From: Camelus ferus | Taxonomy: Eukaryota | Direction: 5' to 3' | DNA length: 64,000 bases | Assembly (NCBI RefSeq): GCF_009834535.1 | Contig: NC_045696.1 | Span: forward strand, 53,198,001-53,262,000 | Shown: piece by piece, positions 9,423 through 57,465 of the stretch | How positions within the stretch are numbered: position 1 is the first letter of the stretch | How the letters are laid out: every line of letters starts with the position of its first letter | Position numbers and translations under genes: made by a program | The notes under the pieces: model-generated | Database searches by the model: none | What the model saw: only the letters and a program-made list of their open reading frames with translations | What the model was told of the DNA's origin: nothing

Positions 9423-9570
9423 TTTTTTTTTTTTAATTTTTTGGGGGGTAGGTAATCAGGTTTATTTATGTATTTATTTATTTTTAATGGAGGGACAGGG
9501 GATTGAACGCAGGCCCTTGCGCACGCTAAGCAGACACTCTACCACTGAGCTATAACCTCCCCCACCCCCC
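9423..9570 (-). mobile_element. Vic-1-type tRNA-derived camelid SINE
   Basis: rc GGGGAGGTTATAGCTCAGTGGTAGAG (A box)...GTTCAATCCC (B box), A-rich region, ACCTGATTACCT tail and poly(A); TSD AGCCCTCAA(G/T)TCTTC. Confidence 0.88.
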
Positions 9571-13109: not shown

Positions 13110-14805
13110 ATTTTATGTTTTTAGAGCAGTTTTAGGTTTACAAGAAAATTGAGAGGGAGGTACAGAAATTTCCCACATACACTCTGCCCTTACTCACGCA
13201 TAGCTTTCTCCATCATCAACATCACACCAGAATGGTACTTTTTTTAACCTACACTGACATATCACAACCAGCCAAAGTCCACAGTTTACCTTAGGGTTCA
13301 CTCTTGATGTTGAACATTTTATGAGTTTCGATAAATATATAATTATATGTAGCCATAATTATACTGCTATACAAAGTATTTTCACTGCCCTAAAAATCCT
13401 CTGTGCTCTGCCTATTCATCTTATCACCCTCCTCTGGCAACCATTAATTTTTCTATTGTCTCCATAGTTTTGCCTTTTCCAGAATGTCATATAGTTGGAA
13501 TTATATAGTATGTAGCCTTTTCAGACTGACTTCTTTCACTTACTAATTGCATTTAAGATTCCTCCATGTCTTTTCATTGCTTGATAGCTCATTTCTTTTT
13601 AGCACCAAATAATATTCTATTGTCTAGATATACCACAGTTTATTTATCCATTCAAGTACAAAATGACATCTTGGTTGCTTCCAAGTTTTGGCAATTATGA
13701 ATAAAGCTGCTATAAACATCTATGTGCAGGTTTTTGTGTGAATATGAATTTTTACTCTTTTGGGTAAATACCAGGGAGCACGACTGCTGGATCATATGGT
13801 AAGAGTACATTTAGTTTTGTAAGAAACCACCAAACTGTCTTCCAAAATGGCTGTACTGTTTTGCATTCCCACCAGTTATGTATGAGAGTTACTGTTGCTC
13901 CACATCCTTGTCAGCATTTGGTGTTGTTAGTGTTCAGGATTTTGGTCATTCTAATAGGTGAATAGCTGTATTGCTATTGGTTTTAGTTTGTAGTTCCCTG
14001 ATGACATATGATGTGGAGCATTATCTCATAAGCTTATTTGCCATCTGTATATCTTCTTTGGTGAAATGTCTGTTAATGTCTTTGGTGCATTTTTCAGTTA
14101 GGTTGTTTGTTTTCTTATTGTTGAGTTTTAAGAGTTCTTTGTATACTTTGGGTAACAGTCCTCTATCAAATGTGTCTTTTACAAACATTTTTTTCAGTCT
14201 GTGGTTTGTCTTCTAATTCTCTTGATATTATTTTTTGCAGAGCTTAAATATTTTAATTTTAATAGAGACTAGCTTATCATTTTTTTCATGAACTGTATCT
14301 TTAATGTTTTGTCTAAAAAGCCATCATCATACGCAAAGTCATCTAAGTTTTCTCCTTACATTATTTTCTAGGAGTTTTATAGTTTTGTGTTTTACATTTA
14401 TGTCTATGATCCATTTTGAATTAAATTTTGTGAGGGGTGTAAGGTTTCTGTGTCTATCCTTTTTATTTTTTTAATGTGGATGATCAGTTGTTGTAGCACC
14501 ATTTGTTAAAGAGACTATCTAAGCTCCACTGTATTACCTTTGCTACTTACTTAAAGATCAGTTGACTTTATTTATGTGCGTCTATTTCTGGGTTCTCTAT
14601 TCTGTTCCAGTGGTTTATTTATATATTCTTTCTCCAATACCATATTGTCTTGATTATTGTAACTTTATAGTAAATTCTGAAGTTGGTCAGTGTTAGTCCT
14701 CCCAATCTGTTCTTCAATATTGTATTGGATATTCTCAGTCTCTTGCCACTTCATATAAACTTTAGAATTAGTTTGTTGATATACATAAAATAACTCTCTG
14801 GGATT
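13110..14805 (-). mobile_element. Old L1M (L1MB/L1MC-like) 3' fragment: 3'UTR and end of ORF2
   Basis: TTTTAGAGCAGTTTTAGGTTTACA 3' end; GCATTCCCACCAG, TTTGCCATCTGTATATCTTCTTTGGTGAAATGTCT typical of antisense L1 ORF2. Confidence 0.9.
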
Positions 14806-17396: not shown

Positions 17397-17665
17397 TCCA
17401 GCTCTTTAGCATAGGGAGGAAATAGATGATTCTTTTTTTTTTTTTTTTCATTTTGCATCCCCCATATGTAAGCAAATTGTCAATGCCTGTGTTGAAATAG
17501 AATTCAAATATCTATGAGACTCAAGTCTGAAATATTTGGAACTTTCTTAAGTTCTCAAAGTCTTAAGTACTTAATGCATGTTTTAGCTTTGAACTAGCTA
17601 TTTTGACACAGTAAGAGTTCAAGAACTACCCTGCTTGTAGAAAGAAATTTCCCCCTTTATCCACA

Positions 17666-18186
17666 TGGGATGAGAAAGGCAACTTTTTGAGAAAACAACT
17701 TTTGCTTTTCTGAATTGCTGCCTAGGCATTTTACAGTATAATAACTCTGCTCACACCCAGAATCTGGGTATTTAGATAAGGACTGAGTCTAGGATGCCCG
17801 CCATAAGTTCCTGCTTTTTTCTGGGCACTTTTTAAAGTAATCATTAATAGTTAAGCCCACAAAAATTTAGTAACCTCCCCCTCAGCCACCTTAATAAGCA
17901 ATGGGTGCTTGCTACCCTGCTCTTTATCTCCTGCTCGCTTAAGACCTGGAAACAACTGCCCTCCTCCCAGCTCACTGCACCCCCTCACTTCTGGTAATAT
18001 ATCTTGTGACTACTTCCTTTCTGTGGGTATCCAGTATTGAAGACGTATTTTCAATCAAAACAATCCCAATCCCGTGTTTCACTTCCCCAAAGTGGGAGCT
18101 TGGATGCTGAGGGAGCTACCTGCTGCCCTTGGGTGGGTATCTCCTCTAGATCTCCTCATTTAGCAGGTCATATCGGGATTATGGCA
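17666..18186 (+). repeat. 5' LTR
   Basis: TG...CA; aligns with 24060-24605 (16 mismatches in a hand-aligned 70-nt block, 17701-17770 vs 24096-24165). Confidence 0.9.
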
Positions 18187-18188
18187 AC

Positions 18189-18210
18189 TGACAACCAGGA
18201 GGATGGGATT
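18189..18210 (+). promoter_or_regulatory. Primer binding site, tRNA-Ser(GCT)-like
   Basis: TGACAAC[CAG]GAGGATGGGATT versus TGGCGACGAGGATGGGATT (complement of the tRNA-Ser-GCT 3' end), 2 nt after the LTR CA. Confidence 0.7.
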
Positions 18211-18699
18211 GTGGACATAGTTTGTATCCCCTTGCAATGCCTTAGAGCTGTGAATGGCTCACTCACTTCCTCTCCCAGACTTCTCAGTCTCCCTGGGAAG
18301 GAACCGCTGCTTGCTGGTGCTGCTGTGTATTGTTGCTTCAGATGCTGTGAATCCCCGCCCTAAATTATTATTGCTATGAAAGGTCAGACTCCCCTGCAGA
18401 GACCAACTGGCAGGCCTCAGTCTGAGATGGGTATGTTTCCTATTAATCTCTAAGTGAGACCCTGCTGGGTGTCTGGTCTGTACGTGATGGCTATAATCTT
18501 ATGCAAAAGTCGCTGCACTGAGCCCAGGTGAGCTAACCAGGACAGTAGGGCTCTGCCTCCATTCCCCCAGGCAGGGACTAGGGGTGTGGGCCATCAGATC
18601 TTGGGAGCCAAGGAGAGCTCTCCTAGATTAGTGTCAGTAAGGGGAGGCTAGCTGCTGGCTCCAAAGTGTCCCCAGGATCCTGATCTTGGGGAGACAGCC

Positions 18700-19400
18700 C
18701 TAACCCAACACAATCATCCATCACAGTCATTACGGCTAAGGCTCATTTCCAGGGAGCAACCCCAGATGAAGTGTGCCTTCTCTTAGTGGAATTGGGATGG
18801 CTCAGTGGGTATATCGTTTTGCTGAGCATCATGGTCCCACAGACACCACCCCCCCAAACCAGAGGAGGCGCCCTTGGGACCAGAATCTAAGGAGTTCTTA
18901 AAGGGCATCCCCCAACTATAGGATGCTGTTACAATTCATAGAAGTGTCAAATACAGTACAACAGGCATTAGACTGCATCAATGCTGGAGCTAAACGTGAA
19001 AAAGAGCATTTTCCTGAAGCCCAAATCTTGTTTGTTGGTAAAGGTGAACGGCCCTGCTGCCTCCCCAGCCAGGAACCCAAAGGACAGGATCTAAAGGCTA
19101 TGAAAGCTTCTAGGCCCCTTACTGGTTCTCGCCAGCTCCTTCCCTCATGGGATAACCTTCAGGCCTCTCTACTGGCAGCTCCAGAGATCTGAATCCCTAA
19201 TGACTTAATCTCAGGACAGCCTGAGCTAAGGTAGAAGCCTTCATTCAGGTGCTGTAGGCTCTTTAGAAAACTACACACCATGGTGAGGGCAGATGAAGTC
19301 ACCTCTCAGAATGACCCAGTCCTGGCGGCAGGATCCGGAATCCCAGATCCCATTCCCTGAACTTGGAGAAGGGCAGCCTCCAAGGCCCCTGCCCTAGGGA
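18700..19400 (+). pseudogene. gag: ERV gag remnant
   Basis: Inferred mainly from position between leader and protease; weak ERVL gag-like LKGIP/VQQALD segment; many stops and frameshifts. Confidence 0.5.
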
Positions 19401-19449
19401 CCCAGTTTCCTGGAGCTTGTCTCTCCTCCAAGAGACACTCCCCCATACA

Positions 19450-19720
19450 ACTCTAATTATCCACTGGGACACACAAAATAGACAACACTTTACTGCTCTC
19501 ACTGACACTGGAGCCCAAATTTCAGTGCTTCCCAGGAACCCCTCAAATATAAGCAAGAGGCAATCTAAATGACAAGGCATAGTGGGTAGAATAGTAGCAG
19601 GCTTTCGCTGGATGCCACTCTTGGAACAATCTTTATTAAAAATCCTTTAGTGGCGGTGGCCCTGTCCTCCCTACCCTTCCTTGTTATAGGTGTGGATCTT
19701 TGTTGCACTGCCATGCCATC
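19450..19720 (+). pseudogene. pro: ERV aspartic protease remnant
   Basis: QHFTALTDTGAQISVLPRNP, with catalytic DTG. Confidence 0.88.
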
Positions 19721-19799
19721 TGGAATAAACCCTGATTCCTGGCCTTCCTGGTGGGAGCTGCACATTAGGAGCTCATAAGACTGCCACTCCTGATTAAGA

Positions 19800-21370
19800 C
19801 AGTAAATATGCCCCAATGTCACTTGTGACAGGGGACTGAAGGACTGTGGCCCATAATTCAAGATTTATTAAATGAAGGAGTCATTAAACACACCATTTCT
19901 CCTTTCAGTTCCCCCGTTTGGCTGGTATTAAAGCCCTCTACTAATGAGTGGTGCAACAGTTGACTGCCGAAATTTAAGTACTCAGGTGCCCCCTATTAAG
20001 GCTCCCTTTCTCAACATTGTCCTGTTAATTGAGAACATCCAAAGGGCTCCAGGGGCTACTTTGCCATGATCGATCTAACTAATATGTCCTATTCAGTATT
20101 GATCACAGAGGAGTCCCAGCTGCAATTCGCCTTCTTATTTGAAGGCACTCAATATACCTTTACCTGACTGCCTCTGGGCTATCTTAACAGCCAGGCTATT
20201 GCCCACAGTCTTTGCCAGCAAGACTTGGACGCCCTTACATTGTCCCCATTACACCGTCTGGCACTATATGGATGACATTCTAACGCAGGGGTCCTCGGAG
20301 GATGCAGTGTGTGAGGCCCTAACACAGCTGACGATGCACCTACAACACAGAGACTGGGCTGCTGCCCCACATAAAATTCAAGGGCCCATCACCACTGTTA
20401 AACTTCTAAGCATTTTTTAAATTCTCTGAAGGCCAGGAAGTCCCACTTGCAGTTAAATATCAATTGTTAACTATTCAGCCTCCTCCCTTGGCAAGCCCAA
20501 CAAGTCTTAGGCCTCTTCATGTTTTGCAGGCAATGCATACTGCACTTACCCACCATTCTTAGACCCATTTATGCCATCGCACGTAAATCCTCCACATTTT
20601 ACTGCGGGGAGGCTCAACAGTAAGCCTTAGAGCTGGCACGAAGGTCAGTCCATCAAGCCCTCTCTCTTGGCCCCCCAGGTCCTCCTTCCAGGTTGAGACA
20701 CTGGCTGCAAGGGACTATGGGTCCTGGAGCATATGGACTAAACACAGTTCTCCTGGCTGCCTGTGGGCTTCTGGCACAGATGGTGGCCCTTCAGAGCTTC
20801 TTGCTATACCCCCTTAGAGTGTTAGATTCTGGCTGCTTCTTGGTATTTGTTAGAAACAGAGGCACTCACAAGAATGGAGCCTCTTCTCTTGAGTACCCAC
20901 ATTCCCATTAGGCCATGGATAGGGGATGTCTCCTGAGAGCAGCTCAGCACAGCTATAACTGCCACTTTGCTGAATGGAAATGGTACCTTCAGGAGCGGCA
21001 TTGACAGCTGTACTGATGTCATGGGTCTTTTCCAATTGCAGAAGGATGTGGCTTCCCCACTCCTCAGCCCCCTGCCCATGAGCCTTGAGGGACTAGTGAT
21101 GGCAGCCCCATTGCCTAAAACTCTAGAGACCTGGGGTAGCCCCTGGGAAGAGCTTATGGAGAGGCAGGAATTTTGTGGATCTTGGACGTCAGCACCACCA
21201 CGTAAGTCACCAGCCAGGTCACCAGCCTCTTGGGGCTCTCAACCACTGACTCTTTACCAACAGCTCTGCGAGGTCCACCCACCATGAAACCATGGCTTCT
21301 CCCACCCTCACCCCATCAATCAGTCCTCGGCTCCACCAATCTGGCCTCTCTTAGTCACTACTTCCATACT
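19800..21370 (+). pseudogene. pol: ERV reverse transcriptase, tether and partial RNase H remnant
   Basis: ISPFSSPVWLVLKP...TVDCRNL...FAMIDLTN...QFAFLFEGTQYTFT*LPLGYLNS...HYMDDIL (YMDD 20265-20276); WGSPWEEL tether motif; multiple stops and frameshifts. Confidence 0.92.
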
Positions 21371-21379
21371 CCTTATCCT

Positions 21380-22640
21380 CTGGCACAATGATCCCATATC
21401 TCTTTGGGTTATGGGGAGCTGCTGCCACTTGGGCCTGGGGCAGAAGTGTTTTGTTTATGGCACATCTTAAAAAATGCATGGTTTTGAATTGCAAAGTATG
21501 CTCCCAAACCAAACACTGGAAACTGCCCTCTCATGTTTTGGTTCTGCAAGGGAACCACTCTTTTATTGCCAGTAGATGTAACCGGCATCCAGGTTCTTGT
21601 CCCGTTCCAGAAGGAATTCAGAGACAAGACACAGAAGTTAAGAAGAGTAAAGTGGGAATTTATTAAGGGATAGACAGTACACTCCCAAGGGGAGAGCAGG
21701 CTGGCTCAGGTGAGCAGCTGCCCTGAGGTTTTTTAGCAAGTTGGTCACATAGAGTGTAAAAATGAATGGGTAGAATATTCATTGGGGAGGGTGGGGTTTG
21801 GGGTCATAGTCCCTCCATCCCAACTCCACCTTCCAGAAGGGAGGGGGGATTTTTGTCCTTATTTAGTCTGTATCGGAAGTGTCATGGTGTCGGTGCATGA
21901 TGGATACTTCTAATCTGCAAGGCTAACTTTATTGAAATGAGGGCATAATGAGCAAAAGGTTACATTTGGACACTCGAGATTCCTGCCTGTTCCCAGTTTT
22001 CTTTGTCAGCCCCCAGGCTGCACATCACCCCAAAGAGTGTGGCCACTTATCAGCCCAAAGGTTCTTGCTTTTCTTTCTCTGCCCAGGGACCCCTGGTGTT
22101 TACATGATGTATGGTTTCCTGTATTCGGCCTGTGCGCCCTCCTTTCTGCCCAATTCCTGCCATTTGGCCTGTGTCCCCCTTTCTCTGCTCATAGCTAGCT
22201 ATCTGTCTGCTCTAACACTTCTGGCCCTTTGATTTCATGAAGCTGCTTCCTTAGTCAGCAGGCACTATCCATTTTGATATTACATGTGCAGATATTTCTA
22301 CTTGCTTACTGCTTGCTACACTCACCAGGAATATTTCTGTGGAACAGGTAATCTCTTTCTTTTCTAAGTGTATCCTTCCCCATTGGGCCCTCCTGACATC
22401 ACTGACTCAGATAAAGTATCTTATTGTACCCACATAACACAGCACTGGTCTCTCCAACGGGGCATCTAATGGAACTTTCATATCCCATACAAGCCACAGG
22501 CCTCTGGCATTACTGAACTCCACTATGGTCTCATAAAAGTCTTTTCCTTAAGTTACAGGGTTATAAGTGAACTCCCAAATGGACTTCCTTGTTGCCAGGA
22601 GCACTTACCACTTTAAACTCTAAGCCACGCGGTCACCACT
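21380..22640 (+). pseudogene. pol: ERV integrase remnant, split by a nested LTR
   Basis: LAQ*SH..GYG and CKVC (HHCC); WPFDFMKLLP; ITCADIST; DSDK...WNFHIPYKPQASGITE...GLIK; ALTTLNSKP. Confidence 0.85.
21564..22217 (-). mobile_element. Nested solo LTR (ERV1-like), antisense
   Basis: rc begins TGTTAGAGCAGACAGATAG; AATAAA on the minus strand at ~21659-21664; 4-bp TSD CTTT/CTTC; integrase motifs continue on both sides. Confidence 0.8.
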
Positions 22641-22768
22641 CTCCTCATACTAAACTCGTCCAGCCTGTGACTGTTATCACAGGGGAATCTGGTACCTTCA
22701 CCTTGTGGGACAATATCATTTACATATTTCCCCAGTACATTTTTTTTTTTGCCTCTTACAGATTTAAA

Positions 22769-23990
22769 ATGTCAATCATCTCACTTTCCAATGAGTCCCA
22801 CAACCTTACAGGGGCCCCTTTAAACACTTCACTTAGCTGCTTGCCTTCACATGCATTAGCCTGGACTATGTCATGTGTCCTACTGGGAGTTAATGAACTT
22901 AATTTCTGTTGGGAGGACCCTTCCTTGGCTGTGAATGCTGCTACCACAGTATCCCACCCCTTATACCCTCCAGGACCACAGCAGCAAAATTACCTCCCTC
23001 CACTGCCCCAAGGGTGCCATTCCCCACCAACACCCTGTAGGGCTCCACAATCTTCTCACTCAAGACCTCTGATAATCTTAATATTTTTATACAATAGGCA
23101 GAAATCAGAGCTCACATTTTGGGCTGCTGTAATTGCTGGGCATGTTACTGGACTCAACAAAGGCTGTTTCCTAAGTTAGTGGCCTAATCAGCTGACTTAC
23201 TGACCCTGCCCCATTTGCCCAACAGAAGGCACCCCATGTGTCCCTGTGACTTGCCTGGCCACTCTCTATGGTGCTCAACTGATCCCATGCAGGATACTTT
23301 TTAATACAATATGTCGCACCCAGAAGGAGCCCCCACAGTTTTGGGCCAAGTGACACAGTCATCTGGAAGGAATCACAATTTATTCTGGCTTCCCTGATCA
23401 AGCAGTTGGTGTCCACTGTGGGTCCAGTGCCCTAGGCCCGTCACATATATGTGTCTCTCCTTACGTGCACTTCTTCTTCCCTCGACCTCCAATGTATTAG
23501 CCTTTTTGCCGGCCCCTGGGGAGTGCTATCTGTCCATACCAATGTGCTTTAGTCTCCCAGGGACTATCCTTACAAATCACTGAACAGGCACCTCACCGAG
23601 CTGTTAGACCAAACCCTAGCCTTAATGCAACAACAACATGATTCTTTTGCACAGATGGTCTTGAATAACCATTTAGCTCTAGATCACTTATTGAGCCAGG
23701 AAGGACGTATACCTGCTGCATGTGTATTAATAATTCTGCACATATTTAAAGACACTTACAAAAGATGGCTCAACAAGTATTCCATAATCCCACCCAAGTG
23801 TTTAATCAAATACCTACTTTAACCTTACCTGAGGGCTTTTATTTATTTTCTTCAGGGGACCTCAACAAATGGTGGGATGGTAATGAACAGGATTTCAAAC
23901 TGTTGTTTGCCTACTCATATTATTTGGCATTTTTGCTTTGCTTAAATGTTTCATGCACTGGGTGACCAAAACCCTGCCAGTGGTTTTTAA
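22769..23990 (+). pseudogene. env: ERV env remnant (SU and gamma-type TM)
   Basis: NELNFCW (CWxC-like); immunosuppressive-domain-like AQMVLNNHLALDHLLSQEG (~23649-23705); TCCMCINNS; hydrophobic anchor VVCLLILFGIFALLKC (~23900-23950). Confidence 0.85.
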
Positions 23991-24059
23991 TATCTCCACT
24001 ATCCAGACAGTGCCTATGATTTTCCCTAAAGATTAATGCCTAGGCATCATGGGGTCAAT

Positions 24060-24605
24060 TGTAATGAAAAAAAACAACTTTTGAGAAAAATAACTTCTGT
24101 TCTTCTGAGTTGCTGCCTAGGTATGTTACAGTATGATAACCCTGCTCTCACCTGGAGCCCGGACATAGATAAGGACTTGAGTTTAGGATGCCTGCCGTAA
24201 GTCCCTGCTTAACTTTTCCTGGGGCACTTTTAAAACTAACCACTTAGAGTTAAAGCTTGCAAAAAGTTAGTGACCTCTGTCTCATTCACCTTATAAGCAA
24301 TAGGTTCTTGCTACCATTCTCTCTACCTCCTGCTCTCTTGTGACCTAGGATGGAGGACTGCCTTTCCCCAGACTCATTGTGCCCCCTCGCTTTTGGGATC
24401 TGTAATTACAAATCTACTTCCTTTCTGTGGTGTACAGTATTGAAACTGTGTCTTTAATCAAAACCACCCTGTGGGTTTCACTGCCCACAAGTGGGAGCTT
24501 GGATACTGATGGAACTCCCTGCTGCCCCTGTGCAGGTATCTTGTGTCTCCTCATTCAGCAAGTCTGAATCTGCTGAATTCAATACACCAGCTCTAGCTTA
24601 GGACA
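24060..24605 (+). repeat. 3' LTR
   Basis: Starts TGTAATG after GGGGTCAAT (class III-like PPT position); homologous to the 5' LTR; 3' boundary approximate. Confidence 0.88.
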
Positions 24606-25329
24606 TCATACAATTTGGGGAAAGTCAGGGCTAGGAAAAGATAGGGTATCCGTGCAGCTGTAACCTCCACTTATTTCACAAATCATATGCTGCTACCAAA
24701 CTAAATGTGTACAGGGATGTGATAAGCAGATATGGAGGAGTAGATGGAAATAAAATTTATGGCAAGTACTTTTTACTCAAATGTCAAACAGTCTATCATA
24801 AATTATCTGAAGACTCAATTGTGAAATTTGTATTTCTATATTATTAATATGGTTAATGACAGAAAAAGCAGAATCAAGTAGTCTAATTTCAGTGGAATGG
24901 TCTATGTTGCTTGGCAACTTTTTTCAGTTTGTCCCCCATGGGTTCTCTTGTGCACGAACTCCTTACGGTTGAGTTACTAAATTTTTACCACTCTACTTTA
25001 AAATCCACATTCCAAACACTTTAAAAATAAATTCCTCTAGATGAGATATGCCTCAGTTTCCCTTATTTGTTTTAACATTTACAGGTTTATTCATCTCTAC
25101 TTAATTCCTGTCGCAAGAGGAGAACTCTGGTCCCTTCTCCCTGGAGTCCTACATTACCCTGGTCCATAGGTCCTATCCTCTCAACTCTTCTGGCAATTGT
25201 TTATATCAGTTAGGTTCCTTCTTTGAAATTGTCTCCTTTATCTCTTTCTCAACCACAATCATTACGTCAGTTTTCCTCTACAATTTGGTTATTCCCCAAC
25301 CTGTACCCACTGATCTCTTACCATGTAAC

Positions 25330-27562: not shown

Positions 27563-27841
27563 TGTGAAACAGAACCAGACTTTCAGATACAGAGAACAAA
27601 CTAGTGGTTACCACTGGGGAAAGGGATCGGGGGAGGGACAAGATAAGGGCAGGGGATTATGAGGTACAAACTACTGTGTATAAAATAAATAAGATACAAG
27701 GGTATGTTGTACAGCACAAGGCATATAGACAGTATTTTATAATAACTTTAAATGGAGTATAATCTATGAAAATGTTGAATCACTATCTTGTATACCCAAA
27801 ACTAATATAAAATTATAAATCAACTATACTTTAATAAAAGA
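27563..27841 (+). mobile_element. 5'-truncated L1 3'UTR insertion
   Basis: GAGAACAAACTAGTGGTTACC...ATCAACTATACTTTAATAAAA; TSD AAAGTGAT(G/A)CA at 27552 and 27842. Confidence 0.88.
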
Positions 27842-29399
27842 AAAGTGATACAAATGGCAGGGCGGGGGAAGGAAGAGGCAATGAGTAAACATTAAAAATG
27901 TTGAATGGGAGGGCAGTCCTAGAAACACTAAAAGAGCCACAGGAATGAAAGATTCTCTCTTACTTTACAAATGTCCTGGTAGTGATGATGAAAGGGCAGA
28001 AGGGAGATAGAGTAGGGATGGGGGCGATGATCATTTCAGAACATTTTGAAATCAACAAGCCTCATATCAACTTTTCTATTCTCAATTTTTTTTGTGATTG
28101 TGGTCATTTTTCTTATGAATAAAGAAATGGTCAGGGAATGGATATGTAATTAGAAAACAAGCTGGCAAAATTCTATAGAATGGTGTGGTGTTAACAATTC
28201 ATGCAGGGCTCACGTACCATTTTCAGTGAGACATAGAAGTGAAGTCACAGAAGTCTGATATCAACAAAATGACATGAAAGATGAGAGAACTGTAAGTCTG
28301 GGAGTGATCATCATCTAACATTTAAATTGCTTCTGCAATTTCCCTACCTCTGTATTGAGCTGCCTTCTGTTTGTCCACAGTCAGTGACAGGAAACTCATT
28401 ACGTTACTCTCCCAGACCAGAACCTTTCTATATACACTCCAGACTTTCCAGATCTTTTTCAATATGTATCTGCTACACAGTCTCTTAGTTTATGAATACA
28501 GCAAATTGTTATATGGCATCAGTGTCATCCTCTAAGGCACTAATATATAACTGGAATAAGTATTTAAGAAAGTTAACGTGATATTTTGATGGTTTAAGAA
28601 TAAAAATCCTATAAATATGACACAGAGAAACAAAAGTGTGGGATATTTGGAGATGTTTTTGGAGAAATTGTGGCAACAAAGTATACCATAACATTTTGAA
28701 AAGGAAGAAGTTCAGGGACTAGGGTAAGCTTATGGCTGTACTCAGGCGAAAAGTGTTTCTATGGATAGAAACCAGGAAGAAATATCAAACTGAATTTTGG
28801 CCTGGAACCAAGTATGGACTCCAGAAAGAAGAGACTTTAGTAACTAATCTCTGTACCTAGTCTTTGACTACTTAAAGTAAAGGTGAATTATGTAGTTAAA
28901 CCTAAGGTGACAACACAAACCAGCCAACAGGAATTTTTTTGTCAGGCCAAATTGATCCATCTGAGAGAGTTTAATGTGATTTACTTATTCTACCCTCAGA
29001 GTATAATGACATAGCACGTGTGCACCTAGAGACCTACAGAACATGGTGAGTTTGAGTCCACATAGTATAGAAGAGAAATCACAGAAGAATAAACAAAAAG
29101 AATGCTGACCTTAAGGATATATTCTCAAAGGCATATTCTTTAAAAGTGATACTTTTAACTACTTGGTTAGTGACAGTTACCAAACTCTGTGCCAGGTAAT
29201 GTGCGAGGTTCTGAAGATACAATGATGAAGCAGACCAATGTCCTATCTCTAGAAAGAAGCTCATAGATTAGAATTTGATGTACACACAAAGCCCCTTTAG
29301 ATCATGCTTAGTCAAAATTATCAACCAGTATACTACTCCGTAGCATAAATTTAGTAGTATTACTATAGTTTTACCAATGATAGTATCATACTTTCAATA

Positions 29400-34137: not shown

Positions 34138-34204
<67 letters not shown>

Positions 34205-34289
34205 TTTTAATGGCAGTATTGGGGATTGGACCCAGGATCTTATGCATGCTAAGCATGTGTTCTACCACTGAGCTATATTCCTCTCCCCT
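34131..34289 (-). mobile_element. Vic-1-type camelid SINE with (TAAA)n tail
   Basis: rc ATAGCTCAGTGGTAGAACACATGCTTAGCATGCATAAGATCCTGGGTCCAATCCCC; long (TTTA)n; TSD CA(A/G)TTTGGTCTTA. Confidence 0.88.
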
Positions 34290-35647: not shown

Positions 35648-36640
35648 CAACCTATTGAAAAGGAAAAGATATTTGCAAACCTCATATCCAATAAGGGGTT
35701 AATACCTAAAATACAGAAAGAACTCATACAACTCAACAAAGCAGCAAAAACCAACCTTGCCCAGTTAAAAAATGGGCAGAGGATCTGAAACAAACATTTT
35801 TCCAAAGAAGACGTACAGATGGCCAATAGGCACATGAAATCAGAGACGTTCAACATCACTAATTATTAGGAAAATGCAAGTTGAATCACAATGGGCTAAC
35901 ACTTCACACCTGTTAGAATGACTATCATCAAAAAGACAAGAAACAACAAGTGTTGGAGAGGATGTGGAGAATCCTCGTACATTGTTGGGTGGAATGAAAC
36001 TGGTGCAGCCACTACAGAAACCAGTACAGAGATTCCTCAAAAAATTAAGAATGGAACTACCATATGATCCAGCAATTCCATTTCTGGGTATTTATCCAAA
36101 GAATTTGAAAATACAGATTCAAAAAGTTATGTGCACCCCTATGTTCACTGCAGTATTATTTATAATAGCCAAGATATGGGAACAACCTAAGTGCCCATCA
36201 GTGGATAAATGGATAAAAAAGATAGAGTACACACACATACACACACAAGAGGAATACTACTCAGCCATAAAAAAGAATATAATTGTGCTATTTGTGACCA
36301 CCCAGATAGACCTTGCAGATATTACATTAAGTGAAATAAGTCAAAGAGAGAAATACAAACAACATGTTATTTCATTCATACATGAAATCTAAAAACAAAA
36401 TAAGTGAACAAACAGAACACAACAGAAACAAATTCATAGATACAGAGAAAAGATTGGTGATTACCAGAGGGGGAGAGGGCTGATGTGTGGACAAATTGGG
36501 TGAAGGAGTAACTGTATGGTAATGGATGGCAAGTAGCCCTTTGGTGGTAATCACTTTGCAGTATATACAGATGTTGTATTATTATGTGGTACACCTGAAA
36601 CTTACATAATTCTATACACCAATTTTATTTCAATAAAAAC
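35648..36640 (+). mobile_element. 5'-truncated L1: end of ORF2 and 3'UTR
   Basis: ORF 35964-36392 ELPYDPAIPFLGIYPK...KCPSVDKWIKK; AATAAA end; possible TSD AATCA(A/C)TTTTAC. Confidence 0.93.
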
Positions 36641-42496: not shown

Positions 42497-42742
42497 GGGG
42501 GTGGAGGGATAAATTGGGAGTTTAGAATTTGCACATACTAACTACAATATGTAAAATAGATAAGCAGCAAGGTCCTACTGTATAGCATAGGGAACTATAT
42601 TCAATACTTCAAAAAGAGCCTATAATGAAAAAGAATACAAAAAGGAATATATATATATATCTGAATCACTATGCTGTATGCCAGAAATTAACACAACACT
42701 GTAAACCGACTACACTTCAATTTTTAAAAAAATTTTTAAAAA
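42497..42742 (+). mobile_element. L1 3'UTR terminal fragment (artiodactyl type)
   Basis: GGGATAAATTGGGAGTTT...AAGGTCCTACTGTATAGCATAGGGAACTATATTCAATA...GACTACACTTCAATT plus A tail. Confidence 0.88.
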
Positions 42743-48223: not shown

Positions 48224-48563
48224 GGGGAAGGAGCTTTAGGACGGCAGAAGAGAAGGATGCAGAGCTCACCTTCTCCCACAAATACATCAAAAGTACATCT
48301 ACATGTGAAACAAATCTCACAGAATACCTACTGAACTCTGGCAGAAGATTCTGTACAACTGGAACTATAAGGAAAATCATCACAAAACAGGATAAACAAC
48401 AAGGTTCTATTGTATGTCATAGAGAACTATATTCAAATACCTTATAATGACCTGTAATAAAAAATAATATGAAAAGAAATATATATATGTGTGTGTATAT
48501 AAATGAATCACTATGCTGTACATCAGAAATTAACACATAAATCGACTATTCTTCAATTTAAAA
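48224..48563 (+). mobile_element. Internally deleted mini-L1 (5'UTR head fused to 3'UTR tail)
   Basis: L1-like start GGGG...GAGCTCACCTTCTCCCACAAATACATCAAAA joined near 48388 to GGATAAACAACAAGG...CTTCAATTTAAAAA; TSD AATTAATTTAT / AATGAATTTGT. Confidence 0.75.
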
Positions 48564-51500
48564 AATGAATTTGTAATTGTGAAAGTATGCACAGGTATGC
48601 TTTTCTTAATGCTTAAGCCAAGAGAAGTACTCAAATATTGTACAAGTATGCCTTACTCTGGGCGATGGATTGCTTCCTGAACAACTGTTTATTGGATTTT
48701 TAGTAAATGAAGGTATATATACATTCCCATGGGCACTCTATAAAGAATCTCAGTACTGAACCATTTTTAAAGTGACAAAATTCTAAAATCTGAATAATCA
48801 ACCCGCCGACTGGGAACTCTGATACCTAATTTATTTGCTTATAAATTAAAGTTTGTTTTGTTTCATTTTATATTGAGTTTTCCAAAGCATGATAGACCTT
48901 TAGGACAGAGTCCTGTATGAAACATGTCCTAATAATATGTGATTGGTCAATTACTCACCTAGGATACTTTTAGTCATACAAAACTGTCACTGTAATGAAA
49001 GTTGTTACCTTAATGCGGTGATACACAGAAACGGTAGAGGACTGTCACTGAGCAACGTGAAATGGCAATTTCCCTTCAACTTAGCACCCCATGTTCCTGG
49101 ATAGCCACAAAATTAGCATCCTTCTGCCCCATGAAACTCAAGCAGGGTTGCCTGCAATTGAGTTTGCGGGTTTAGATGGACCACAAAGCTTCTTCACTGC
49201 ATTTGAGATCTAGATTGTGATTGTTTTAGCAGTTAAGTTTGTCAGAATGGCTTCAGTAATACCAGAGATGGGTCTGGTGCCATGAGCAGCAGTCTTGGCC
49301 CTTCAGTGGCCAACAAGGACTGATTAAGAAGTGAAACATTGGTTAAGTTTCTCTCAATTAGGCGTAAGATAATGTCTTCCTGGAAGCACCTACTCACTGT
49401 AATTGCTAGACCCTGGATAAATTTGACTTGCTAAGGGAGCTTTAATGTTTAACACATGTTAAAGAGTTACAGAAAATCTTTTAGCTGTGACTTTCATAAG
49501 TGCTCCCTGTTTATCCTGTTTGAGTTGCAAACACAGAACGCCACTTTACAGACCATGTTGAGTAATATCTTAAAGTGCTAAACCCAGCCCTTCTATACCT
49601 ATCCAAACATCCAACTTGAATAGCTTTATTATAATAAGCAGTATCATATAGTTCTATCATAATAAGTAATATCGTAATTTAAAGGCATGAACATTTAAAG
49701 TGCAGTCCAGGTTTTGTTAGTCACTAGTTCTGAGATCTAGATAAAGAATACTTATTCAAACTTTAATTACTCCATATGTAAAATTAGAGGATGGGACCAT
49801 ATGTACTATAGGCTCCTTTTGTAAGTAACATTTTAGGAATGACTCCTTGAAGCCTCAAATAGACAGAAAACTACGATGTTATAGGATGATATAATGAGGT
49901 TCCATGGTTCCAGTATAAAGAGTTGATGACCAAGAAGTGAATTAACTCGAAACTTAAGCCACTGAAAAACAGAATTCAGGTTTTCTGATATGATACAGAT
50001 TATTTTCAGTAGATAAACATAAGATATGCTATAATTACCATGATATTCTTTTCAACTTAAAAATCAATCTCTAATACATAACTTGATTGTACTCATTTTA
50101 CAGAAGAGAAAACAGACTCAGAGGAGTTAAATATTTCCCCCAAGTTTGCTAGAACTTGAAATAGCCTAGATTTGCTTATTCCCAGTTAGTTTGTTTCATA
50201 TTTTAGGGTCTATTCAGGTGGAAAATAACAAAAGAACTGGATTTTGTTAGCAAGCAGTTGGTTCTAGGTGCTCTAGGATTATTAAACAAGAATATTCTAC
50301 TTCACTAACAGGAGGAAACAAATGGAGACATTTGATTATACTCATCTTGTACCACAGAAGTAAAATCTACTTTGTGGACAGAGAATAAAATGCAATTCAC
50401 TGAGGGATAATGAACCAAGTTGTGGTTAGTCTAAAAGAGAAGCTGGACTTTCACTACTGTTTTGTGGGAGAAGTCTTCCTGAATAATGATACTCAAACTC
50501 ATTACTGAATTCCTTTCTGCTGCGGAGAAGGACAGCTAAAAACTAAGGAGAGAAATAAGAAAGTACAATGGAATATATATTCTATGTAAATTGAGTATGG
50601 GGGGGATATGGGCTGGGATGCAATCGTGAAAGGGAAAAAAAACAGTGATAAAATGGAGATTGGATTTTAGAAAAGCAAAAGCAGAGTGAAAGAGGAGATG
50701 GATGTAAAGATGAAAGGAATTATTGAAGTGCATTTTCTCTCTTTGTCTTTGACAATGTCAACCACCTATTTATGCATATGTCTTGTGAATTACAGAACCA
50801 CAAATGAACATGCATATAACAAAAACAAATAGAGAAACCATACATGTGTTCATAACTGTTCTGTCTAGTGATGCATTTTTGCATAGACAGAGGCCTGATC
50901 ATGAGTCCCATTATATCATGGAAACTGAAGCCACTAATTAAGTGTTTGGAGAAAGGCAAAAATAACACTAAAAAAACAAAAACTAAAACCTACAACATCA
51001 AGACTTTGAACTGATATTCTTCTACTGGGAAAGATAAGTTCCTCTGTTTGATGTAAAGACCATCTAGATTAGTCTTCTTGCATTCACTAAATAATTATTC
51101 CCAAGCTAACTGACAGTGATTACAGTTAGCAGTTCAGCACACATCCTCAGATTTGTCATATGGTACTGCTAATGAGGGGATGTATTTTCCTGATAAAGAA
51201 TTAACCTAATTGTTGTTGGCTCCCTATTTTGAAGCAAAGACCCTGAACTACCTTGATGTTTTATGTTTCTCTTTTTCATGGTGTTTTCTTCTTTTTGTTG
51301 TGTTTTGATTCAAAGTCAGCAGGAATAACTGTTCATCTGCCAGTGGAGCCATTCTTTTCTGTATGACTTTAGCCTCCACAGATGCAAGGCACATACATAT
51401 AATGTCATCCTTAATGTGTAAGAATCTATTCTAAATAGGTGCTAGATGTCAATTAATATGGAGGGGAAAAGCCAAAAATGTTGGTTTGCTATTTGATTTA

Positions 51501-57267: not shown

Positions 57268-57465
57268 ATTTTTTTTTAATTGAAGTATAGTTGATTTACA
57301 ATGTTGTGTTAATTTCTAGTATACAGCATAGTGATTCATTTATTTATATATATTCTTTTCTTATTCTTTTTCACTATAGACCATTACAAGGTATTGAATA
57401 TAGTTCCCTGTGCTATACAGTAGGATCTCGTTTATTTATTATACAGTAGTCAGTATCTACAAATT
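57268..57465 (-). mobile_element. L1 3'UTR terminal fragment
   Basis: Poly(T) then AATTGAAGTATAGTTGATTTACAATGTTG...GAATATAGTTCCCTGTGCTATACAGTAGG. Confidence 0.88.

Follow-up and report, generated by a model that had tools for sequence, protein, structure and literature searches.

Provirus organization and class assignment

Positions 17666-24605 of a 64,000-nucleotide stretch of Camelus ferus DNA (NCBI RefSeq assembly GCF_009834535.1, contig NC_045696.1, positions 53,198,001 to 53,262,000, forward strand; the whole stretch is called the window) hold a real provirus bounded by two long terminal repeats (LTRs). The copy is probably what is left of an old class III (ERV3) lineage that carried a captured class I (gamma-type) env, a dead provirus in neutral decay. 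Its parts follow the order of an endogenous retrovirus (ERV), LTR-primer binding site (PBS)-gag-pro-pol-env-polypurine tract (PPT)-LTR. Stop codons and frameshifts occur in every gene, and the present copy codes for nothing and yields no functional protein. A class III backbone joined to a class I env is an already described combination, known from HERV-S, HERVL32, HERVL66 and XtERV-S.

The LTR pair is the top self-match within the window by blastn. Between 17670-18169 and 24064-24564, 392 of 486 aligned columns are identical (80.7%, E 1e-82), which bears out the two-LTR provirus proposed in a first-pass annotation made from the sequence. Each LTR is about 0.5 kb long and starts with TGT, at 17666 for the 5′ LTR and at 24060 for the 3′ LTR. 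Because the alignment stops at 18169/24564, the LTR 3′ ends are uncertain.

The class of pol was read from the reverse transcriptase (RT). A search of the Protein Data Bank (PDB) with a 70-residue RT piece returned five RT chains of foamy viruses (E 1e-5 to 2e-4) and otherwise two unrelated chains at E 2. With a longer single-frame RT (21 matches), foamy virus scored 51 bits, ahead of murine leukemia virus (MLV) at 34-35 bits and of Ty3 and the "Polymerase" entry 7sr6, which we take to be HERV-K, at about 16 bits. The motifs SPFSSPVW (19898), LPLGYLNS (20168), HYMDD (20262), WGSPWEEL and FHIPYKPQASG (22476) all lie where the first-pass annotation had placed them. Its class III call agrees with the ranking of foamy RT above MLV and with HERVL-type motifs, since KIQGP and the "GLFGFWRQHIPHL"-type downstream thumb motif are common to this RT and the HERVL consensus (PMC4724089 supplement).

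Identities in RT were also counted by eye across a 56-position segment that begins at motif A and ends shortly after motif B. This rough count gave 29 identities with HERVL (52%), 27 with HERVS (48%), 25 with LTR57 (45%), 19 with HERVL66 (34%) and 19 with class I PRIMA4. By this measure, the RT appears about equally distant from HERVL and HERVS and farther from PRIMA4. The copy thus counted would be class III, yet near none of the references compared; by our estimate, a member of the same family would be expected to show about 75% identity at this age.

Other searches with pol and LTR sequence returned little. RT pieces yielded no scored relative in word-index protein searches (31, 2 and 701 candidates), an RT piece had no match in viral contigs, the YMDD piece had no meaningful match in the PDB, and an LTR motif was absent from viral and metagenome contigs. 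Pfam is weak on this copy: RT pieces gave RVT_1 only below the cut-off, or nothing, and within the provirus only the protease and a sub-threshold RT were recognized.

The env was assigned from its transmembrane subunit (TM). All six PDB matches of the TM piece at 23580-23723 are gamma-type TMs (syncytin-2, syncytin-1 and one "envelope glycoprotein"; best E 0.011), in line with the gamma-type env suggested at first pass. A sequence resembling the immunosuppressive domain (ISD), LNNHLALD, lies at 23661, and of the CX6CC motif only CC is left, at 23714. The features of the provirus, including the env surface subunit (SU), are as follows.

17666-18181, plus strand: 5′ LTR, with its 3′ end within 18169-18193; placed by pairing with the 3′ LTR and by flanking context
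18182-18209, plus strand: interrupted PBS, best fit tRNA-Ser(GCT); 11-nt exact match at 18199-18209 and a 7-nt near-tandem repeat at the PBS 5′ end
18240-19420 (limits approximate), plus strand: decayed gag region, recognized by its likeness by eye to the HERVL66 putein
19441-19720, plus strand: protease remnant with DTG at 19504; Pfam RVP E 0.0015, just under the cut-off
19802-20680, plus strand: RT of class III type with several stops and frameshifts; placed by PDB ranking and motifs
20681-21200, plus strand: connection/tether region and RNase H stub, with WGSPWEEL at 21132-21155; most of RNase H missing
21390-21576, plus strand: integrase N-terminal zinc-finger region, CKVC at 21490
21577-22217, minus strand: 641-bp LTR-like secondary insertion inside integrase, with TGT...ACA ends and AATAAA twice on the minus strand
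22218-22640, plus strand: integrase catalytic core; 11 of 12 PDB matches are retroviral integrases, best E 0.003
22738-22761, plus strand: predicted splice-acceptor-like site (T tract and CAG) ahead of env, from sequence only
22793-23593, plus strand: env SU remnant with a proline-rich stretch; 4 stops in the longest frame and an internal deletion near 23320
23594-24010, plus strand: env TM remnant with heptad end, ISD, CC and hydrophobic tail; gamma-type by its PDB matches (6 of 6)
24049-24059, plus strand: degenerate PPT position, a short G run ahead of the 3′ LTR; weak
24060-24605, plus strand: 3′ LTR, ending between 24581 and 24605; common to the 5′ LTR up to 24564

Env deletions shared with relatives and age of the insertion

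A search with SU across 1.84 billion representatives found 16 relatives with 41-58% identity and lengths of 135-267 residues, none full length and all decayed. Records were looked up for 10 of the 16, and none bore a name. Near position 23320, 8 of the 11 relatives that span the site have about 25-30 more residues than this copy, and the same SU segment is missing from the other three (P0003, P0006 and P0007). Of 7 relatives that cover the SU/TM junction, 6 retain a segment with furin-site and fusion-peptide traces that is missing here; the seventh, P0006, is without the same fusion-peptide segment, and its alignment continues over the junction without a break (120 columns, 60% identity). This copy has lost its furin site and fusion peptide to deletion, and their traces can be seen in P0009 and P0012. 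A signal-peptide-like stretch of P0011 and P0017 is missing as well, and the CXXC at about 23207 is not conserved in P0003, P0005 or P0015. P0006 had no match in metagenome contigs. In one relative (P0008/P0028), the open reading frame (ORF) passes from the beginning of SU to the ISD with almost nothing in between, which is another, larger env deletion in the same family.

P0003 and P0006 start with a peptide that we take, unconfirmed, to be the translation of the ruminant Bov-tA short interspersed element (SINE). Together with P0007 they are probably ruminant; the three appear to represent one locus in related species and were counted as one observation. The shared env deletions suggest either an orthologous insertion that predates the camelid-ruminant split or a deleted parent or subfamily that spread in both lines.

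The two LTRs differ by 60 transitions and 34 transversions, a Kimura two-parameter (K2P) distance of 0.228 (bootstrap 0.18-0.28), or 0.198 without CpG columns. At 2.2e-9 substitutions/site/year, the rate applied in PMC9604959, the insertion dates to 52 million years (My) ago, or 45 My without CpG columns. A rate of 1.5e-9 gives 76 My and 3e-9 gives 38 My; the whole span over the rates is 23-76 My. The camelid-ruminant split is placed at 64 My or more (PMC9604959), and in cattle the peak of class III activity has been dated to about 60 My ago (PMC13582161).

The alternative that survives best is that the env-deleted form was a non-autonomous subfamily that spread inside cells, so that the ruminant-type relatives are paralogues at another locus. 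We consider this a serious contender, with somewhat less than an even chance of being right. Shared deletions can come from a deleted parent, and the different, larger env deletion of P0008 implies that deleted forms were common. The LTR date of 45-52 My at 2.2e-9 is also younger than the artiodactyl split. However, the SU deletion is common to only 3 of 11 relatives, whose one-locus appearance does not favor a dispersed subfamily. The date can also be stretched: about 63 My is reached with K at its upper bootstrap limit of 0.28 or with a rate close to 1.8e-9, one of which orthology with ruminants would need.

RNase H, integrase and the question of dUTPase

Only about 230 nt lie between the tether motif and the integrase zinc-finger region, which is too short for RNase H given its expected length; most of RNase H is therefore missing. 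Between the RNase H stub and integrase, a C/T-rich stretch of about 190 bp (21200-21390) fitted no retroviral domain. The 641-bp insert in integrase has no target-site duplication (TSD) at its ends and no second copy in the window, and this antisense element is probably the solo LTR of another family. The PDB matches of the catalytic core include deltaretroviral, foamy and other integrases. The insert, the loss of most of RNase H and the env deletions are additions to the first-pass annotation, whose description of a near-complete copy does not hold: no gene is intact, and there are deletions in RNase H and env.

Neither an integrase C-terminal domain nor a dUTPase was seen downstream of the catalytic core. 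No Pfam family, dUTPase included, was detected in three frames of 22440-23100, a weak test since RT itself scored below threshold or not at all. The earlier remark that no dUTPase is visible agrees with this, for an interval that looks deleted, with about 150 nt between the end of the integrase core (22640) and the first SU homology (22793). A deletion between the integrase core and SU could also have removed a dUTPase.

A family that possessed a dUTPase, as ERV-L does, and lost it here through this deletion is an unlikely explanation, though one with some substance. It accords with the shortness of the interval and with what this copy lacks, the C-terminal part of integrase and the signal-peptide-like segment of P0011 and P0017, and XtERV-S shows that class III pol, dUTPase and class I env can be combined. 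Yet neither this copy nor any of the 16 relatives, some of which extend upstream of SU, gave a dUTPase match.

Primer binding site, gag and protease

The last 11 of the 18 bases complementary to the 3′ end of tRNA-Ser(GCT), taken from PMC8632637, are present at 18199-18209 and occur only once in the window. The first 7 PBS bases (6 of 7 matching) lie at 18182, 10 nt upstream, and are followed by a 7-nt near-repeat. Without a gap, the match is 13/18 by eye. A reading as Arg(ACG), set against the PBS listed in PMC4724089, scored below Ser(GCT), with 10/18 ungapped and 13/18 with a 2-nt gap, and was rejected. Ser(GCT) appears to be the better call though not a clean one: the Ser(GCT)-like PBS proposed at first pass stands as the best fit, with its 11 consecutive bases, but it is interrupted. 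PBS type is an unstable marker (PMC4724089).

Two parts of the gag region, at about 18880-18960 and 19170-19230, resemble by eye the gag-derived part of the HERVL66 putein. Gag is very decayed, with no Pfam match in three frames and no zinc knuckle seen.

Relationship to described class III families

The PBS of HERV-S is of the serine type. HERVS, HERVL32 and HERVL66 have no dUTPase and carry class I envelopes (PMC4724089, Vargiu 2016; PMC5753468, Kojima 2018), and all class III envelopes met in PMC4724089 clustered with class I. The present copy is like HERVS/HERV18 (LTR18), HERVL32 and HERVL66 in its class III pol, its class I env and in showing no visible dUTPase after integrase, in an interval that looks deleted.

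It is nevertheless improbable that the copy belongs to ERV-S proper (the HERV18/LTR18 family) as an artiodactyl representative. Its class III pol, class I env, serine PBS and lack of a visible dUTPase do fit HERVS (PMC4724089, PMC5753468), and HERV-S-related ERVs occur in 29 bat species (PMC12402889). However, the RT is no closer to HERVS (48%) than to HERVL (52%) by eye, and the SU is unlike the HERVS env consensus, again by eye. In the visible part of the env list of PMC4724089, the ISD of this copy and of P0006 resembles those labeled PRIMA41a, HEPSI1a and HERVL_C, not those of HERVS, HERVL66 or HERVL32; for HERVL66, the difference in ISD type adds to an RT identity of 34%. In addition, frog ERV-S uses Ser(AGA/TGA), whereas the best fit for this copy is Ser(GCT), and unlike HERVS-type systems this copy is heavily deleted. 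The "ERV-S-like" label given at first pass is therefore apt for the architecture but not for the sequence: the copy works like HERV-S, with a class III engine and a borrowed gamma env, but its RT, ISD and SU do not place it in HERV-S.

Among the references compared, HERV-L/MuERV-L have the nearest RT (52%) and have RT motifs in common with this copy. ERV-L has a dUTPase, no env and mostly Leu/Met primers, whereas this copy has an env and no visible dUTPase. The lineage appears, from these comparisons, to be separate from both HERV-S and HERV-L.

Two other systems come close in part. XtERV-S, an intact frog example (Yedavalli 2021, PMC8278194), has class III gag-pol, a gamma-type TM, an SU of no recognized family, a serine PBS and a short env, as here; unlike this copy, it is intact and recent, has a dUTPase and uses Ser(AGA/TGA), a comparison made by description only. 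HERVL chain 4244 (env group HERVL_C, Vargiu 2016) is class III, lacks dUTPase and has a similar ISD type, but it is a single mosaic human chain with a MER84/MER101-like env.

Neither the SU of this copy nor that of any relative matched a relevant Pfam family, and the SU ORF and P0009 had no meaningful match in the PDB. An AlphaFold model of SU was unusable (mean pLDDT 45.9, pTM 0.25). The visible part of the env list of PMC4724089 did not contain the SU motifs of this family. Five motifs of this copy or its type did not occur within the first 400 characters of the cells of that article's main table, which apparently includes no pol sequences and is uninformative on this point.

At least seven unclassified ERV3 internal families are listed in Table 4 of PMC5753468. 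HERVL68, HERVL40, HERVL74, LTR52-int, MER70-int, MER76-int and LTR53-int are old class III families outside HERVL and HERVS, likened to this copy by description only. Such unclassified Repbase ERV3 families may be the likeliest home of this lineage, and the old family to which the copy belongs probably has an entry in a repeat catalogue already. ERVs with a serine primer, their class not stated, are reported in horse (PMC5682256), and env capture is reviewed in PMC10536682. Full-text searches, which covered few subscription papers, yielded no description of an env-bearing class III family in camelids or ruminants, a result that does not conflict with the suggestion made at first pass that the lineage may be poorly described in artiodactyls.

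A more far-reaching interpretation, which we regard as possible but doubtful, is that the copy represents an undescribed env-bearing class III lineage of placental mammals. Such a lineage would stand apart from HERV-S, HERVL32 and HERVL66, with its own gamma-type env capture and an SU of no recognized family. It would have been infectious around the artiodactyl radiation, and this insertion would be orthologous between camelids and ruminants and at least about 64 My old.

The open frame in SU

The frame at 22571-23614 has 4 stops in 348 codons, whereas shuffled sequence gives 14.1 (P 0.0008) and each of the remaining frames has 15. P0007 and P0018 use a different frame across 23075-23115, and therefore compensating frameshifts are concealed there in the SU remnant. 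The scarcity of stops is a sign of coding ancestry and not of selection, because about 5 stops would be expected by our estimate from neutral decay at this age (about 11% divergence) and because of the hidden frameshifts. The long open frame was accordingly rejected as a sign of co-option. Co-option of SU by the host, as for ARTenvV (a gamma-like ERV and not this element; PMC9604959), would explain the open frame and the matches in RNA-labeled sequencing runs and could draw on the strong acceptor and ATG ahead of the frame, but it is highly improbable, as the ATG is not followed by a signal peptide, the closest relatives are broken too and no full-length relative was found.

In a survey of sequencing runs with sampled words of 17400-24800, at least half of the words are present in 20 of 24 rows, and 14 rows of one organism contain 93-94%.

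Proposed history of the provirus

Several observations weigh against a decayed class III provirus with a captured env, or against parts of the history proposed for it. The class call comes from the PDB ranking and from counts made by eye; these counts separate the classes poorly, as class III HERVL66 scores as low as PRIMA4. The TM matches are individually weak (E 0.011-0.69), and the Ser(GCT) match of the PBS requires a gap. For a start at 17666, no TSD with one mismatch or fewer was found (best 3/5 by eye); ERV-L-type elements have a TSD of 5 bp (PMC8278194). A camel rate of 5e-9 per year (applied in PMC8605555) gives an LTR age of about 23 My, which is too low for an insertion that ruminants have at the same site. 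In three RNA-labeled runs of reproductive-tract material, drawn from two studies, 63-72% of the sampled words are present; these words are a lead only, and DNA carry-over or read-through could account for them. The ruminant origin of P0003 and P0006 depends on the presumed SINE translation.

With these points considered, a class III provirus with a gamma-type env remains our preferred explanation. Its parent would have been an infectious virus, its gag-pro-pol of class III and its gamma-type env acquired by capture, which would have primed reverse transcription with tRNA-Ser(GCT) and made Env from a spliced RNA through the acceptor near 22761. Infection of a germ cell would have been followed by integration about 40-65 My ago. 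Two env deletions, which arose in this insertion itself or were already present in its parent copy, may have taken the furin site and fusion peptide before the host and ruminant lines parted. Fusion function would have been lost in this way, and a foreign LTR would later have landed in integrase, with decay since.

Most mammalian class III retroviruses lack env, and those that have one acquired it from class I viruses. Another lineage with an env of its own, if true, would be an extra independent capture and would mean that chimeric viruses infected early hoofed mammals. An insertion shared with ruminants, if true, would provide a dated calibration point. No principle is changed by these results, and the copy itself is inert.

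Other repeats in the window

Four related repeats of about 200 bp (42526-42739, 48391-48576, 57269-57465 and 27776-27844) are 75-81% alike and are presumably LINE-1 3′ ends. The stretches at 13640-14154 and 35703-36389 are related in opposite orientation (66%), and we take the ORF at 35922-36389 to be the end of LINE-1 ORF2. Two short tRNA-derived SINE copies with A-rich tails, at 9461-9563 and 34185-34287 (minus strand), are 79% alike. One of them was called tRNA-Ala by ARAGORN, and the pair fits camelid vic-1, which SINEBase lists beside similar rodent and armadillo SINEs (PMC3531059).

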